In this document: piece after piece, positions 4,622 to 59,545 of the stretch
Position numbering within the stretch: the first letter of the stretch is position 1
Layout: the number at the start of each line of letters is the position of its first letter
DNA from: Podarcis pityusensis
Taxonomy: Eukaryota
DNA: 64,000 nucleotides
Strand: one strand, 5' to 3'
Assembly (NCBI GenBank): GCA_964106645.2
Contig: OZ067051.1
Made by a program: the position numbers and the translations under genes
The notes under the pieces: generated by a model
Databases searched by the model: none
Seen by the model: only the letters and a program-made list of their open reading frames with translations
Told to the model about the DNA's origin: nothing

Positions 4622-4779
4622 TTAGAAGTCATGTCAGAGATATTCTATTGACTGTTAGTTCCCAAACAGCATGGTGACTGGAAAAGGTTAACTGAAAAAT
4701 TTACATATAAATCTAGGCTTTAGAAAAATATAGTTAAGCTGCACTCATTTTATTGCACTTGATTTCCATTTATGTCTTA

Positions 4780-5098
4780 TATTGGGGATTGGCAGCCTTT
4801 TGCCCTACAAATGATGCTGGACTACAACTTCTGTTATCTCAAATGATTGGCTCAACTGGTTGGGGCTGATGGAACCATTTTATTTATTAAATTTCTATCC
4901 AAGTTTTCTTGCAGCAAATAGCAGAATAGCAGAATACCATTTAAAAATAAAGAAAAACATCAAAAAACTTATAGAAACATTTTAAAAGCATTCAAATACC
5001 CTAATAATTTCAAAGATGCTAGGAAATTTGACAGATCTTTCAGCTATCCTATGCCTTGGTAAATAACATCTGGAGGATCACAGGTTCCCTACTCCTGT
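4780..5098. mobile_element. Degraded hAT-type MITE interrupted by a LINE 3' tail
   Basis: GATGCTGGACTACAACT...GGGGCTGATGG left half and AACATCTGGAGGATCACAGGTTCCC right half flank an A-rich insert starting TTTATTTATT. Confidence 0.5.
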
Positions 5099-5291
5099 CT
5101 AATGTAAGCCGTCACAGACCCACAAAACAACTTCCATTCTGTTATATGTCTTTGGAAAGATCAGTTGGCTATGTCAGTTGAGGAGAATAATAACTTATAG
5201 TTGCACATTTTCTGGTTCAGAAGTGTTATGGGGTTCTGCTTATGGCATCTTTTATTTTTGGATCAACACATCCCTATAATTTGTATGTATT

Positions 5292-5331
5292 TGTGTGTGT
5301 GTGTGTGTGCGCGCGCACACACACACACACA
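5292..5331. repeat. Compound microsatellite (TG)9(CG)3(CA)8, self-complementary
   Basis: Read directly from the sequence. Confidence 0.95.
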
Positions 5332-6613
5332 TTTCTGTTTTTTACCAGTGTTTATACTTGGATACGAATGAAATCCTGTGTGCGCTGTGGCATTGAATCA
5401 ACTGTGTGTAAAATTTCTCCAGCAAAAATGTTCTACTAACTTGCTATAAAGGATTCATTGTCAGAAGTTTCATTAGGAAAAAGTCTTGATTTTAGCTGTG
5501 TGTGGCAAAAAACTCAAATTGTCGAAAGTTGCAGAACAGCTCTCTGCTGCTCTGAAACGTAAATGACTAATGTGCATATTTTATTTCAGCATCTGGGCCT
5601 GAAAAGTTGCATACCAAATTTTGTTTGATTTGATCAACAATGGCTGAAAATTGGGATTTATCATGGAAATGCTGACAGATATGAACATGTGTCAACTAAA
5701 GCGTGTGCCTGACAAACCTTCTTATTGTATGGTGCTGGTGGTGAAATGTTAATTTTTTGCTGCTTTAATTGCATTTTTTCTTTGCTCAATCTAGTCTTTT
5801 CAAAGTCTGGCTGTTTTGGTTGCACTTCAGCTTTGTACTAATTTTTCCTCGAGTATGCAGAAAACTTGTCAGGTGCCTGTGCTGCTTTTTGAGCAGAAGA
5901 GTTTCCTGAAAGCCCTGGATTACCTTTCTTAGTATACAAGGATGAAAAAAGCAGCAGCTGCACTAGCAAGTCCATATTTTGCTGCAGTAATGTGTTCCTG
6001 ACAGAAGATGGTGCCTTCAGCCTTCACTCAGATTCTTCCTAGTCGTCTTCCGCCACTCTTTTTATTTTATTTAAAAAAAACATTTTGTGCTGCACAGCCA
6101 GAATGCTGTCACTAGGATTATAAATTCCGAAGCCAATTAGATAAAAAAATGTTGCAACTGAAAGCGAAGAAGCTAAAAGCTGGTGAATATCTTCATGTTA
6201 GTGTGCCAGCCTTGGAGAGCAGTTTCTAGGGAGCGCTCAGATGTGAGCTTTCTACACTGCTTTCAACACTGCTTTCTACACTTTTGCACAACATAGATCT
6301 GAAGCATCTGCCGAATTAACTGTGTGAGGGAACTTGGAGTAAGGCGTGATGATTTAAGGGTTTTATTAGATTCCATAGGACAGTAGCTTGCACAACTAAT
6401 TTAATTAATTAATTTAGAGAACGTTCATAGACCACTTAATCAGAAAAGTAAGCAGTGTAAATAATATGGCTACCGATAAAATGCAGATAAAATCAGCAAA
6501 ACTGTAAAAACAGCAACAGTATATATAAATAGTATACATAAATAATTTTCAATAAAACACAATCTGCAAAACTTGTTAAAACAAATATATATCTAAATTA
6601 TATGTCTGAGTAT

Positions 6614-28449: not shown

Positions 28450-30474
28450 TTAGTCGTTTAGTCGTGTCTGACTCTTCGTGACCCCATGGACCAGAGCACG
28501 CCAGGCACTCCTGTCTTCCACTGCCTCCTGCAGTTTAGTCAAACTCATGCTGGTAGCTTCGAGAACACCGTCCAACCATCTCGTCCTCTGTCGTCCCCTT
28601 CTCCTTGTGCCCTCAGTCTTTCCCAACATCAGGGTCTTTTCCAGGGAGTCTTCTCTTCTCATGAGGTGGCCAAAGTATTGGAGCCTCAGCTTCACGATCT
28701 GTCCTTCCAGTGAGCACTCAGGGCTGATTTCCTTCAGAATGGATACGTTTGATCTTCTTGCAGTCCATGGGACTCTCAAGAGTCTCCTCCAGCACCATAA
28801 TTCAAAAGCATCAATTCTTCGGCGATCAGCCTTCTTTATGGTCCAGCTCTCACTTCCATACATCACTTCTGGGAAAACCATGGCTTTTACTACACGGACC
28901 TTTGTTGGCAAGGTGATGTCTCTGCTTTTTAAGATGCTGTCTAGGTTTGCCATCGCCTTTCTCCCAAGGAGCAGGCGTCTTTTAATTTCGTGACTGCTGT
29001 CACCATCTGCAGTGATCATGGAGCCCAAGAAAGTAAAATCTCTCACTGCCTCCATTTCTTCCCCTTCCATTTGCCAGGAGGTGATGGGCCCAGTGGCCAT
29101 GATCTTCGTTTTTTTGATGTTGAGCTTCAGACCATATTTTGTGCTCTCCTCTTTCACCCTCATTAAAAAGTTCTTTAATTCCTCCTCACTTTCTGCCATC
29201 AAGGTTGTGTCATCTGCATATCTGAGGTTGTTGATATTTCTTCCGGCGATCTTAATTCCGGCTTGGGATTCATCCAGCCCAGCCTTTCTCATGATGAATT
29301 CTGCATATAAGTTAAATAAGCAGGGAGACAATATACAGCCTTGCTGTACTCCTTTCCCAATTTTGAACCAATCAGTTGTTCCATATCCAGTTCTAACTGT
29401 AGCTTCTTGTCCCACATAGAGATTTCTCAAGAGACAGATGAGGTGATCAGGCACTCCTATTTCTTTAAGAACTTGCCATAGTTTGCTGTGGTCAACACAG
29501 TCAAAGGCTTTGGCATAGTCAATGAAGCAGAAGTAGGTGTCTTTCTGGAACTCTCTAGCTTTCTCCATAATCCAGCGCATGTTTGCAATTTGGTCTCTGG
29601 TTCCTCTGCCCCTTCGAAATCCAGCTTGCACTTCTGGGAGTTCTCGGTCCACATACTGCTTAAGCCTGCCTTGTAGAATTTTAAGCATAACCTTGCTAGT
29701 GTGTGAAATGAGTGCAATTGTGCGGTAGTTGGAGCATTCTTTGGCACTGCCCTTCTTTGGGATTGGGATGTAGACTGATCTTCTCCAATCCTCTGGCCAC
29801 TGCTGAGTTTTCCAAATTTGCTGGCATATTGAGTGTAGCACCTTAACAGCATCATCTTTTAAAATTTTAAATAGTTCAGCTGGAATATCATCACGTCCAC
29901 TGGCCTTGTTATTAGCAGTGTTTTCTAAGGCCCATTTGACTTCACTCTCCAGGATGTCTGGCTCAAGGTCAGCAATCACACTACCTGGGGTGTACGAGAC
30001 ATCCATTTCTTTCTGGTATAGTTCCTCTGTGTATTCTTGCCACCTCTTCTTGATGTCTTCTGCTTCTGTTAGGTCCTTTCCACTTTTGTCTTTTATTATG
30101 GCAATCTTTGTACGAAATGTTCCTTTCATATCTCCAATTTTCTTGAACAGATCTCTGGTTTTTCCCATTCTATTGTTTTTCTCTATTTCTTTGCATTGCT
30201 CGTTTAAGAAGGCCTTCTTGTCTCTCCTTGCTATTTTTTGGAAATCTGCATTCAATTTCCTGTATCTTTCACTATCTCCCTCGCATTTTGCTTGCCTTCT
30301 CTCCCCCGCTATTTGTAAGGCCTCGTTGGACAGCCACTTTGCTTTCTTGCATTTCCTTTTAATTGGGATGGTTTTAGTTGCTGCCTCCTGTATAATGTTG
30401 CGAGCCTCCATCCATAGTTCTTCAGGCACTCTGTCCACCAAATCTAAATCCTTAAACCTGTTCCTCACTTCCAC
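28450..30474 (-). CDS. BovB reverse-transcriptase portion, 674-aa open frame
   Basis: Motifs NYRTIALISH, FIDYAKAFDCV, GVQQGCILSP, LRYADD, FTFLGS. Confidence 0.93.
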   Translation of the reverse strand: MEVRNRFKDLDLVDRVPEELWMEARNIIQEAATKTIPIKRKCKKAKWLSNEALQIAGERRQAKCEGDSERYRKLNADFQKIARRDKKAFLNEQCKEIEKNNRMGKTRDLFKKIGDMKGTFRTKIAIIKDKSGKDLTEAEDIKKRWQEYTEELYQKEMDVSYTPGSVIADLEPDILESEVKWALENTANNKASGRDDIPAELFKILKDDAVKVLHSICQQIWKTQQWPEDWRRSVYIPIPKKGSAKECSNYRTIALISHTSKVMLKILQGRLKQYVDRELPEVQAGFRRGRGTRDQIANMRWIMEKAREFQKDTYFCFIDYAKAFDCVDHSKLWQVLKEIGVPDHLICLLRNLYVGQEATVRTGYGTTDWFKIGKGVQQGCILSPCLFNLYAEFIMRKAGLDESQAGIKIAGRNINNLRYADDTTLMAESEEELKNFLMRVKEESTKYGLKLNIKKTKIMATGPITSWQMEGEEMEAVRDFTFLGSMITADGDSSHEIKRRLLLGRKAMANLDSILKSRDITLPTKVRVVKAMVFPEVMYGSESWTIKKADRRRIDAFELWCWRRLLRVPWTARRSNVSILKEISPECSLEGQIVKLRLQYFGHLMRREDSLEKTLMLGKTEGTRRRGRQRTRWLDGVLEATSMSLTKLQEAVEDRSAWRALVHGVTKSQTRLND

Positions 30475-30677
30475 TGCATATTCATAAGGAATTTGACTTA
30501 GATTGTATCTTACCGGCCCAGTGGATTTTCCTACTTTCTTCAGTTTAAGCTTGAATTTTGCTATAAGAAGCTAATGATCTGAGCCACAGTCAGCTCCAGG
30601 TCTTGTATAGAGCTTCTCCATCTTTGGCTGCAGAGAATATAATCAATCTGATTTCGATGCTGCTCATCTGGTGATGT

Positions 30678-31394
30678 CTATGTGTAGAGTCGTCTCTTGT
30701 GTTGTTGGAAAAGAGTGTTTGTGATGACCAGCTTGTTCTCTTGGCAGAACTCTCTTAGCCTTTGCCCTGCTTCGTTCTGAACTCCAAGGCCAAACTTGCC
30801 AGTTGTTCCTTTTATCTCTTGACTCCAATCCCCTATAATGAGAAGAACATCCTTCTTTGGTGTCATTTCTATAAGGTGTTGTAAGTCTTCATAGAATTGG
30901 TCAATTTCAGTTTCTTCAGCACCAGTGGTTGGTGCATAAACTTGGATTACTGTGATGTTAAAAGGTCTGCCTTGGATTCGTATCGAGATCATTCTATCAT
31001 TTTTGAGATTGCATCCCAGTACAGCTTTTGCCACTCTTTTGTTGACTATGAGGGCCACTCCATTTCTTTTACGGGATTCTTGCCCACAGTAGTAGATATG
31101 ATGGTCATCTGAACTGAATTTGCCCATTCCCGTCCATTTTAGTTCACTGATGCCCAGGATGTCAATATTTATTCTTGCCACCTCAGTTTTGACCACATCC
31201 AACTTACCAAGGTTCATGGTTCTTACATTCCAGGTTCCTATGCAATATTTTTCTTTACAGCATTGGACTTTCCTTTCGCTTCCAGGCATATCCGCAACTG
31301 AGCATCCTTTCGGCTTTGGCTCTGAATCTACTTGTACTTGTCCTCCGCTCTTCCTCAGTAGCATGTTGGATGCCTTCCGACCTGAGGGGCTCAT
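30678..31394 (-). pseudogene. BovB APE endonuclease portion, separated from RT by a stop and small deletions
   Basis: IGTWNVRT, DILGISELKW, QVYAPT, and IIGDW with the following NAKVG deleted. Stop follows RRLYT. Confidence 0.9.
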
Positions 31395-31619
31395 CTTCCA
31401 GCGTCATAACTTTTATATGCCTGTTCTCTTTGTCCATGGAGTTTTCTTGGCAGGGATACTGGAGTGGCTTGCCAGTTCCTGCTCCAGGTGGATCACGTTT
31501 GGTCAAAACTCTCCACTATGACCTGTCCATCTTGGGTGGCCCTGCACGGCATAGCTCATAGCTTCTCTGAGTTATTCAAGCCCCTTCGCCACGGCCAGGC
31601 AGTGATCCATGAAGGGGTG

Positions 31620-48837: not shown

Positions 48838-50784
48838 AATCAATCAATCAATCAATCAATAGATTTTATTGCATTAGCCGTGTGGCCATAGCATGATATA
48901 CATTGAAATAACAACATGAAATGGGGGTGGGGAGGTAAAGGTAGATATCTTCCTGGGCGAATACTTAAAGAAAGAGGGGGGGAAAGGGGGGGTTACTAAA
49001 GCGACAGGGGATTTAAAACATTGAGCGACAGATAGTACAGAAACAAACAAACAAAAAAAACTGCTGAAGCTGGAGGAGGACCGTTAAAGGGTCCTTCAGC
49101 TCCTCAGATTTATCCTAACTCCATTGTCCTTGTACAATAAGACTACTTGGAACTTCGTTCGATTGTGCGGCATATCGACTGCAGCTGTGGTGTTAAGGAA
49201 GAAGTTAGTGCCGCTTTCCTCTTCATCACACTAAGCAGGAAGTTAGCTGTCATCTCGGTAATCCAACAATCAGAATCCTGCAAAAGGAGGGACACTATCC
49301 AAGGCTGGATTGGGAGATGAAGCTTATTCACGAGGGGAGTTAAAAACCGAGATCTTTCATCTGTCCAGTTAGGACAGAAGAGCATTACATGTTCCATAGT
49401 CTCCAGGGCCGTGTTGTTACAGGTGCATGTTCTATTTGCGATGGGAACTCTGGAATAACGACCCGACAGAACTGCCGTAGGAAAACAGTTGAGACGGGCA
49501 CAGGTAAAGGCCCTTCGCTTAGCCTCCGAAGAAATTGTGAAGCAGTATAGAGGGATCCCTTCAGGGGGTGGAATAGCTAGGGCTAGGCCTGAACACGGCC
49601 CTCTTGCATAGGAAGCTGTGTTAGAGAAGTCAAGTTGCTGTAGTTTCTTTTTAATTGGAGGTAGGGCCGCCGGGCTGATACACTCTAAGTTAAGAACAGT
49701 TTTACAATTCAAATTGAGAAGAGAGCGGAATTTGAGGTTAATTGTAGTTTTCCAAGGGGAATTATGAATATCTCTTAGGATCAGATTGGAAAAACCACCT
49801 CTAATTCGAGCATCCGATGCTAATAGGTGGAAGCTGTAGGAAATGGCTCGACTCCATGCTCGTTTAACAATTGAGGGCTGGGCGAACTCGAGTCGTAGGG
49901 CTGCACCTGAGACACATCTCGGGACGCCGGAAAGAGATCTCAGAAACATATGAAGTGGGCGGTCCAAGTTACCTGATATTGCTGTAGTCCATACTTCGCA
50001 TCCATATAATAATTTAGGGACAACTTTGGCATTAAATATTTGAATTGCTGCTGGAAGGTGTTTGCCGCCCTTCTGGTGGTAAAATCGGACAATGGCGTTA
50101 GAGGTCATGGTTGCAGCGAGAAAGGCAGATTGTAGATGGGTGGTCCAGGAGAGATTATAAGTGAAAATTAAGCCTAGATATTTAAAGGCTTTTACCCTTT
50201 CTAAGTAGCCACCTGTGATCTTAAGCGGCTCCAACTTGAGTTTGCAGGAACGAGTGAAGTGGAGGACTTTCGATTTTTTATAATTAATATTAAGAGCTTC
50301 CGCCTTACAATAGGCGATAAATGCATTAACTGCATTTGCTAGGTCCGCAGCTGTTCTGGATAAGATGACGGCATCATCAGCATAGAAAAGGGAAGCAACG
50401 GGGTGGCCTGCTAAGTGAGGAGGGTACTTAGATGCTAGCTTCAAAGTGGAAATTGCATCATGAAGATAGAGATTAAACAGTAGAGGGGCCAAGAGACAAC
50501 CTTGTCGGACGCCCTTGGCCGTTGGAAATGGAGTAGTGAGGGAGCCGTTGGGACCACTTCGGACGCGAGCTGTGGTGTTTGAATAAAGGGAAATAATTAG
50601 GGAGAGGAGGTGCGGATCAATTCCCAGATGGGCAAGTTTGGACCATAATCTCTGCCTAGGAATGGAATCAAAGGCGGCCTCCAGGTCCATGAAAGCGGCA
50701 AATAGGTGGCCTTGCCTTGGTGCAGTGTATTTACTGGCAAGGTGATAGAGAGTTAGACAGTGGTCCATGGTTGATGCTGACTAA
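48838..50784 (-). mobile_element. 5'-truncated RTE-X-type LINE, family A, young
   Basis: RT ORF, 3' end ATGCTATGGCCACACGGCTAATGCAATAAA plus (ATTG)n tail. TSD AGTGATC at 48831-48837 and 50785-50791. Confidence 0.85.
49143..50768 (-). CDS. Non-LTR retrotransposon RT (partial) with C-terminal CCHC-like domain, 541-aa uninterrupted frame
   Basis: FMDLEAAFDSI, GVRQGCLLAPLLFNLY, LFYADD, FKYLG, RTCTC...ETMEHVMLFCP. Confidence 0.92.
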   Translation of the reverse strand: MDHCLTLYHLASKYTAPRQGHLFAAFMDLEAAFDSIPRQRLWSKLAHLGIDPHLLSLIISLYSNTTARVRSGPNGSLTTPFPTAKGVRQGCLLAPLLFNLYLHDAISTLKLASKYPPHLAGHPVASLFYADDAVILSRTAADLANAVNAFIAYCKAEALNINYKKSKVLHFTRSCKLKLEPLKITGGYLERVKAFKYLGLIFTYNLSWTTHLQSAFLAATMTSNAIVRFYHQKGGKHLPAAIQIFNAKVVPKLLYGCEVWTTAISGNLDRPLHMFLRSLSGVPRCVSGAALRLEFAQPSIVKRAWSRAISYSFHLLASDARIRGGFSNLILRDIHNSPWKTTINLKFRSLLNLNCKTVLNLECISPAALPPIKKKLQQLDFSNTASYARGPCSGLALAIPPPEGIPLYCFTISSEAKRRAFTCARLNCFPTAVLSGRYSRVPIANRTCTCNNTALETMEHVMLFCPNWTDERSRFLTPLVNKLHLPIQPWIVSLLLQDSDCWITEMTANFLLSVMKRKAALTSSLTPQLQSICRTIERSSK

Positions 50785-57975: not shown

Positions 57976-58105
57976 TCTGCAGTCCCCTTTCCCCATACCA
58001 GTTAGCAACTTCCTAGTGGTTGCTTGTTTCTTTAGGTGAAAGTCCTTCCCCTAGCTTATCTGTTTCCAGGGGAAATATGGATATCTGGCTGCAGGCAAGT
58101 GGAAG

Positions 58106-58688
58106 CAGCGGCGTAGCGTGGGTTATCAGCACCCGGGGCAAGGCAAGTAATTTGCGCCCCCTAACCCGGGGCAAGGCAAATAATTTGCGCCCCCTAACCC
58201 GGGGCAAGGCAAGTACAGTAATTTACTCTCCCAAGCAGCAGCAGCAGCGAGGCTTCTCTTTCCCCCGCGCTCTCCTGGAGCTGCCTCTTTTCTTTCCTTT
58301 TTTCCCTTTCTCCAAGGCTTTTCGCTTTCTCTCCTTAATTGATTCCTCCTCCACACCGCAGCGTTTCCTAGCTGCTTCCCCCCCCCTTCCCCTCTCTCTC
58401 CTCCTCGTTCTGCTTGCCTTGCCCTGCACTGGCAGCAGCAGGCGCAGCCAGACCCCCGCCAGCCAGCCCGCCCGCCCGCCCGCCCACCCGGCTTCCTCTC
58501 CTTTTTTTGCCCGCGGCAGAAGGCTTCGCTCTCCCCCTTCCGCGACCTCCTCGCCAAGCCGAGCGAGCGCGGGCTCCCTAACCCGTGGATTTTAGTAGGG
58601 GCAGAGAGCTGCTAGTGCGAGCGCGCCCCCCGCCCATGTTGCGCCCGGTGCGGCTGGCCCCCCTGGCACCCCCCACGCTACGCCACTG
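58106..58688. mobile_element. hAT (Ac-like) non-autonomous element carrying GC-rich cargo
   Basis: TIRs CAGCGGCGTAGCGTGGG / CCCACGCTACGCCACTG. Perfect 8-bp TSD AGTGGAAG at 58098-58105 and 58689-58696. 33-bp subterminal repeat, about 2.6 copies, at 58131-58215. Confidence 0.93.
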
Positions 58689-59545
58689 AGTGGAAGTCTC
58701 ACATTCCTTCTACATGACCACACATCTTCAGGTTGGCTTGACAGCATATTTCTGTATATTCGAAGATAGCTTCCCCCTCTGATGTGAGCCTAGTTAGTGG
58801 GAGTGATTTGTTAGTGGGAATGATTTGACTTAGAGAACAGCCTGGAGTGGGTAATTGCAAGGCCGTGTGTGGATTGTTCCTATTGTACCCTGTGTTGGTA
58901 ATTTCCTTATTTGTTTTTATAGTATGGCATTGAGAAGTCACAGGTCTTTTCTTTCCTCTATCATGAGGGCTAGAAACTGCTACAAAAAAAAAGAAGTAAA
59001 GAAAAAAGCTGGCTTACTTAGGCATTCATCTAATAGCAGACATACAAAACAAACAGACAGCAATTATTGTGAGACTGGCAACAAAATCACTAGAGTCGAT
59101 GGCTCTAATTAAGTCCCTAAGGGAATTGGTCAGGAGGAGAGCCAACATCTCCAATGAAAAGAACTGTATTGCAATATTTAATTGCCTCAATTACTGTGTT
59201 GTTAGCAATAAGGATAGATTTCTTAATTTATCTTAAATGATAAAATTGTACTTTCATATGTGTTGATTCTTGTGGAAGTTTATATTTAGGAAACAGGACC
59301 CATAATAGTAAGTATTTTATAAACAAATGCTTTACAGTCTAAACAGTTTGTGTATTCTTATGTGAAACACAAATGCAAAATTATTTAAATCTGATGTGAA
59401 GTCTGATGATGTAAACTCTCTTAAGTAATAAAAATAATGCTTACAGTAGCAAGGATTTGGAAAGTCTAAACATTCCAGTGGTGAGCCTGTAAGTATCCAG
59501 TACATAGCTGGATTTATTGAGATTCGAATAACTCTGTGTAACTTC

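Follow-up and report, generated by a model that had tools for sequence, protein, structure and literature searches.

The window analysed here is a 64,000-bp stretch (C14:4,092,001-4,156,000) of a 1.515-Gb genome, which we call G000 and which, to judge from its size and repeat types, is probably that of a lizard. It contains a 583-bp element spanning 58106-58688 and bracketed by an 8-bp target site duplication (TSD), AGTGGAAG, whose two copies at 58098-58105 and 58689-58696 (plus strand) match perfectly. The element ends in 17-bp terminal inverted repeats (TIRs) at 58106-58122 (plus strand) and 58672-58688 (minus strand), complementary at 16 of 17 positions. Between the left TIR and the interior, the left subterminal region (58123-58215, plus strand) holds 2.5 copies of a 33-bp repeat that is present once in the parent element described below; units start at 58131 and 58164, and the third is interrupted at 58215 and continues at 58576. 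The right subterminal region (58577-58671, plus strand) is as found in empty family members of 160-170 bp. An earlier note on this DNA had recognized the perfect TSD, the 17-bp TIRs and the interrupted third repeat, and each was confirmed.

That note had also delimited a captured segment at 58216-58575, to which two corrections apply: the first 10 bp are filler, and the cargo is made up of two blocks of donor sequence brought together by a later deletion. At the left capture junction, the filler (58216-58225, plus strand) has no counterpart in the donor, and seven of its bases duplicate the repeat of the element itself. Block 1 (58226-58427, minus strand) derives from the 5′ CpG island of BCOR and is identical to a donor on G000:C4 at 23/23 and 189/200 positions. 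Block 2 (58426-58576, minus strand) resumes about 208 bases further on in the same donor (140/146 identical) and ends in a 1-bp microhomology with it at 58576. In both blocks the BCOR sense strand is the minus strand of the window. Adjoining the deletion breakpoint, a 12-bp motif native to the donor (58413-58424, minus strand) corresponds to part of the subterminal repeat in inverted orientation, a marginal likeness given that an equally long match arose in 98 of 2000 shuffles of the donor.

In composition, the interior (58216-58575; GC 0.63, 24 CpG, CpG observed/expected [o/e] 0.81) stands out from the 1-kb flanks of the element (GC 0.46 and 0.37, o/e 0.09 and 0.12) and from the entire window (o/e 0.27). 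The earlier description of a CpG-rich interior in AT-rich surroundings thus holds for the interior, whereas the left flank is only mildly AT-rich. As a whole, the 583-bp element (GC 0.64, o/e 0.76) exceeds the CpG island thresholds of GC >0.5, o/e >0.6 and >200 bp, and its own ends match the cargo in GC and CpG richness (GC 0.61 and 0.71). Elsewhere in the window, long frames at 28453-31403 and 49146-50780 (minus strand) look like candidate pieces of a LINE reverse transcriptase.

Because the best 40 matches of the element in the genome were all full length at 98-100% identity, and because all 30 fetched short copies were flanked by perfect and distinct 8-bp TSDs, the element is not a chance arrangement; it is a non-autonomous hAT transposon. 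The interior as query gave 300 candidate places genome-wide. Counting copies with and without cargo, as had been proposed, gave 286 places on many contigs for the exact left cargo junction and 1026 for the uninterrupted junction, and the exact left element end occurred 2299 times. Twenty uninterrupted-junction loci were checked: 17 were short empty elements, two held pieces of the parent interior and one was interrupted. The cargo-bearing copies share identical junctions (286 exact) at places with differing TSDs, showing re-transposition after capture. Divergence from the majority sequence was 0.26% for short copies, a value that understates family age since it comes from the 30 copies closest to the window copy, and 0.5% for a longer form of the element. 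Two copies 21 kb apart (G000:C5:23.32 and 23.34 Mb) have common private mutations and different TSDs, and are likely a local hop.

Through deletion derivatives, we traced the family to a 3619-bp parent hAT with a broken transposase and a hAT dimerisation domain, to which the 17-bp TIR and both ends of the window element are 89-95% identical. A protein search returned ten matches, three of which lie within open 841-codon frames. The three open-frame units (G000:C1:96,628,287-96,633,441, C14:20,394,948-20,399,820 and C13:30,947,562-30,952,381) are 4820-5155 bp long with perfect TSDs and are identical at 836-841 of 841 residues, and their frame matches PF05699 (hAT C-terminal dimerisation, 7.7e-12) and DUF4371 (7.6e-17). 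Since the cargo element shares its ends, including the TIR, with the transposase-coding copies, we infer that the 841-codon transposase mobilises it. The cargo gave nothing beyond chance matches of 19-20 nt against the four transposase-bearing copies, and no match to the parent interior. The interior of another locus, L044, was considered as a second cargo and rejected, as it equals the parent's own promoter end. Two parent derivatives, L115 and L123, have a common 160-bp insert that is missing from the 3619-bp copy. Around one open-frame unit (L257:2-670 and 5432-6385; G000:C13:30.94 Mb) lies what by eye is a putative olfactory-receptor cluster.

The cargo alone, as a genome query, returned only element copies among its best 40 matches. 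A genome-wide pattern in which a cargo word continues into letters incompatible with the element gave five matches: one non-element locus, two damaged copies and two chance matches. The non-element locus, G000:C4:59,202,190-59,202,762, is the donor, 94-96% identical overall with blocks at 94.5% and 95.9%, and no family TIR or repeat was present in the 45 kb examined around it. By the criteria of Tan et al. (2021; PMC8277862), a Pack-TIR has a parental copy at least 90% identical that is not flanked by the element, as seen here, and >100 bp of non-element DNA between the TIR ends, which amounts to 351 bp in the window and 544 bp in long copies. The donor sits in an approximately 16-kb CpG-rich domain (o/e 0.45-1.0) just upstream of the first spliced exon of BCOR. 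Contigs of presumed-RNA sequencing runs cover L058 5911-6441 and depart from the genomic sequence at a GT located 680 bp from the donor, on its far side. Their next 30 letters have a single occurrence genome-wide, 38 kb on at C4:59,241,229, where an AG precedes them. The exon there starts a frame that we take to be the BCOR N-terminus, and exons downstream encode the BCOR domain PF15808 (1.5e-46) and ankyrin repeats (Pfam matches for two of four pieces). A 951-codon frame among these downstream exons had no Pfam match. The runs concerned (X1-X14), whose RNA status is presumed only, come from other organisms and do not fix the BCOR start site, and the donor may be either promoter or first-exon DNA. 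The proposal that a host gene's 5′ CpG island had been captured is thereby supported, with a single non-element donor at the BCOR 5′ end on C4. The two outcomes named beforehand as fatal to it, a segment native to the autonomous hAT or one with no donor, are contradicted by the four transposase-bearing copies that lack the cargo and by the donor itself.

The 214 donor bases absent from the window form, used as a query, gave 11 matches, namely the donor and ten elements. These long elements measure 761-779 bp, have perfect TSDs in 10/10 cases and the same junctions as the short form, and are colinear with the donor (519/551 identical). In the short form, the two blocks are fused over a 2-bp microhomology. 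Because the long copies still have the roughly 208 bp concerned, the window form likely shed about 200 bp after capture. Splicing as the origin of the 208-bp gap was ruled out, as the long copies retain those bases. The ratio of cargo to parental length is 544/573 in long copies and 351/573 in the window form; Tan et al. used a filter of 80-120%, for young cases.

Sequencing runs from relatives contain different forms of the cargo. In run X16, one unbranched 1751-nt contig passes through the donor at a flat depth of 11, indicating that this one run holds the donor only. In contrast, cargo contigs reach depths of 4,738-6,566 in run X19 (50 in flank), without an 11-bp deletion, and of 905-1,157 in run X20 (29 in flank), with that deletion; the right capture junction is identical in the two. 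In run X15, depth was 4,948 over shared parts and 166 over the long-only part, against 15-26, in agreement with about 290 and 10 copies; contig depth is a rough guide and gives no true copy number. The presence of amplified long forms in two relatives (X19 and X20) and of the donor only in one (X16) fits amplification of different forms in different relatives. Two flank letters are common to X16 and G000 and absent from X19 and X20, yet X16 has no copies; this absence may reflect loss or a history of introgression, two sites being too few to choose.

We then considered what the copies have become. CpG transitions make up 31 of 45 substitutions in short copies and 24 of 39 in long copies, corresponding to rates 12.7 times (p = 4e-16) and 9.5 times (p = 2e-11) those at other sites, and 5 of the 13 differences between element and donor are CpG losses in the element. 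Excess CpG transition is an established mark of germline methylation. As their CpG sites mutate 9.5-12.7 times faster, the copies are likely germline-methylated, and this mutation pattern departs from that of island promoters, which are unmethylated in the germline and escape CpG hypermutation. The flanks of 45 copies had a median o/e of 0.29, and one of the 45 was island-like. Judged from base composition and substitutions, the likeliest reading is that the bulk of the copies are passengers, methylated and not functioning as promoters, and single active copies may exist among the family.

The earlier note had favored the opposite view, that of a mobile CpG island or cryptic promoter, and on these data that suggestion fares poorly. 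Under it, the BCOR piece in each copy would stay unmethylated, recruit CpG-binding or Polycomb factors and start transcripts. Each copy does bring along 580 bp at GC 0.64 and o/e 0.76, and RNA-like contigs over the cargo from another organism, organism A, show element-type letters at 5418, 5419, 5428, 5618 and 5626, such that transcription of copies in organism A is possible and a minority could escape methylation. However, the predominance of CpG transitions among substitutions and the bulk-DNA character of the flanks run counter to protected islands, and the contigs are blind to transcript starts and strand; hundreds of intronic copies would yield them passively. We regard portable promoters as improbable for the family, and the letters in organism A as a sign of passive presence at most. 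That these letters represent an older BCOR allele was considered and rejected; donor-only runs lack them, and on that ground they are element-derived.

With respect to origin, the BCOR 5′ piece was likely copied once into a broken empty element during break repair, and the two capture junctions, one with a 1-bp microhomology and the other with the 10-bp filler that in part duplicates the repeat of the element, would point to DNA template switching. Neither the founder insertion nor the exact empty acceptor was found, and the repair route is what we infer from the junctions. Capture would have been followed by the 11-bp deletion, the approximately 200-bp deletion and a burst, in that order, with amplification likely driven by the family's transposase supplied in trans. 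The whole account, a non-autonomous hAT of about 300 copies with a single BCOR 5′ CpG-island source, acquired by repair, trimmed by deletion and amplified in trans, we hold at a probability of roughly 0.9.

A quite unlikely alternative is that the broken element acquired its cargo from RNA, with a 5′ or divergent transcript of BCOR as the template. In favor of this, the donor is located where a gene begins and is spanned by a 664-nt donor-type contig in RNA-like run X10; read on the BCOR strand, the deleted 208 bp have GT as their first and AG as their last two letters; and a captured piece with no intron is compatible with an RNA source. However, the long copies keep the 208 bp, placing their loss after capture, in line with the 2-bp microhomology; the cargo has neither poly(A) nor an exon joint; and filler with microhomology is typical of DNA repair (PMC8277862). 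The reverse direction, in which the segment is transposon sequence by origin and an old piece of it was exapted at the BCOR locus, could appeal to the GC-rich element ends and the shared 12-bp motif, but is largely refuted already, and we give it next to no credence, given the 45 kb around the donor clear of family TIRs and repeats, the lack of cargo in all tested transposase-bearing copies, the donor form with the same letters at 5418, 5419 and 5428 in runs X16 and X10, the 5 of 13 differences that are CpG losses on the element side, and a motif match that shuffling reaches 98 times in 2000.

Capture from BCOR and spread to many sites make the element a multicopy Pack-hAT, a Pack-TIR of a known kind; this assignment is well supported, and what is new is the scale and the traceable history. 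The survey of Tan et al. (2021; PMC8277862) reports 370 animal Pack-TIRs in 100 genomes, of which 208 are hAT. Four cases are multicopy, at 3-5 copies, and one of these four is a hAT that carries part of a 5′ UTR; the survey's supplement has none for the Anolis lizard. The earlier statement that few vertebrate cases are described is therefore apt for multicopy elements and too strong for animal Pack-TIRs at large. According to the same text, the survey pipeline demanded a unique top hit, a filter that would likely miss high-copy families such as this one. The closest likeness given there (PMC8277862) is Pack-hAT-N8_XT of Xenopus tropicalis, with 291 bp of CAPSL 5′ UTR in three copies: both are non-autonomous hATs that carry a few hundred GC-rich base pairs from the 5′ part of a gene, with a donor far from the copies, distinct TSDs, and microhomology or filler at the junctions. 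They differ in that the BCOR element has about 300 copies rather than three (or five in another frog case), and in that its long precursor, later deletion and open transposase are all present. The junctions also resemble those of most Pack-TIRs and of Ssk-FB4 in Drosophila (FoSTeST model), with microhomology on one side, filler on the other and repeated transposition after capture, as far as described in PMC8277862; unlike our element, FB4 is MULE-like and carries a nearly whole coding gene, expressed, in four copies, whereas the BCOR cargo, which is non-coding, appears methylated. Plant Pack-TYPE elements such as Pack-MULEs likewise hold host fragments between TIRs, are multicopy with a GC-rich bias and form multi-donor patchworks (PMC8903248, accessible text). 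They are set apart from the present case by its vertebrate host and its CpG-island cargo from a Polycomb co-repressor gene, BCOR being described as a PRC1.1 subunit (PMC13703134, accessible text). A literature search spanning open papers found no lizard or reptile Pack-hAT; repeat databases may already contain an entry for this family. Among plant Pack-TYPE elements, maize Pack-hATs reportedly also carry host fragments.

In animals, TIR transposons had been regarded as capturing host DNA in multicopy form rarely and on a small scale (four cases with 3-5 copies; PMC8277862). In the present genome, one developmental CpG island lies at unrelated sites in about 300 near-identical copies. Since the donor, its long precursor element and relatives in which differing forms were amplified are all available, the case amounts to a natural experiment on two questions: whether a fragment of a CpG island can keep methylation away in new surroundings, and whether silencing directed at the copies spreads to BCOR. 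The case further suggests that in repeat libraries high-copy Pack elements pass for ordinary MITEs.

Other GC-rich interiors occur in the family. Among the 30 left ends that come first on C1, three enclose the BCOR piece, 14 are short and the other 13 have a 200-bp interior of another kind; a biased pick of 37 further loci divided into 17, 17 and 3 others. This second interior (GC 0.70, o/e 0.77; 2.1% divergence over 30 copies) occurs neither in the parent nor in the BCOR region and defines elements of 380-430 bp (L146-L169 and others on G000:C1, e.g. L151:1497-1922), which, given the 13 of 30 left ends, perhaps number about 1000. A search for its donor found none, its 41 matches being 39 with both element ends, one truncated copy and one chance match. 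In the three open-frame units, the parent's CCAAT promoter and first splice donor are gone, and the right end is a nested 1.7-2.0-kb element that includes a 56-bp tandem repeat, another short inverted-repeat element and a third GC-rich segment (GC 0.63, o/e 0.73) with three E-boxes and a pair of splice-donor motifs oriented toward the transposase. In run X5, one contig fuses element-type BCOR cargo to this third segment (L058:5403; L256:9139) and is a chimeric Pack element in organism A. By composition, the second and third interiors may be captures and are candidates only. We tentatively entertain, as a possibility rather less likely than its negation, that the family takes up CpG-island promoters of its host one after another and multiplies them into hundreds of copies (BCOR at about 300, the second interior at about 1000, the third, and chimeras), and that captured promoters feed back on the parasite, as all three open-frame copies have swapped their native promoter and first exon for a captured-looking GC-rich segment.

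At L035/L163 (G000:C1:11.80 Mb), a short element without a matching TSD adjoins another copy of the third segment, which is hence multicopy outside the transposase units. At L222 (G000:C1:61.10 Mb), a 505-bp element with a perfect 8-bp TSD and a degenerate right end has a GC-rich interior unique among the fetched loci, and is possibly a further capture.
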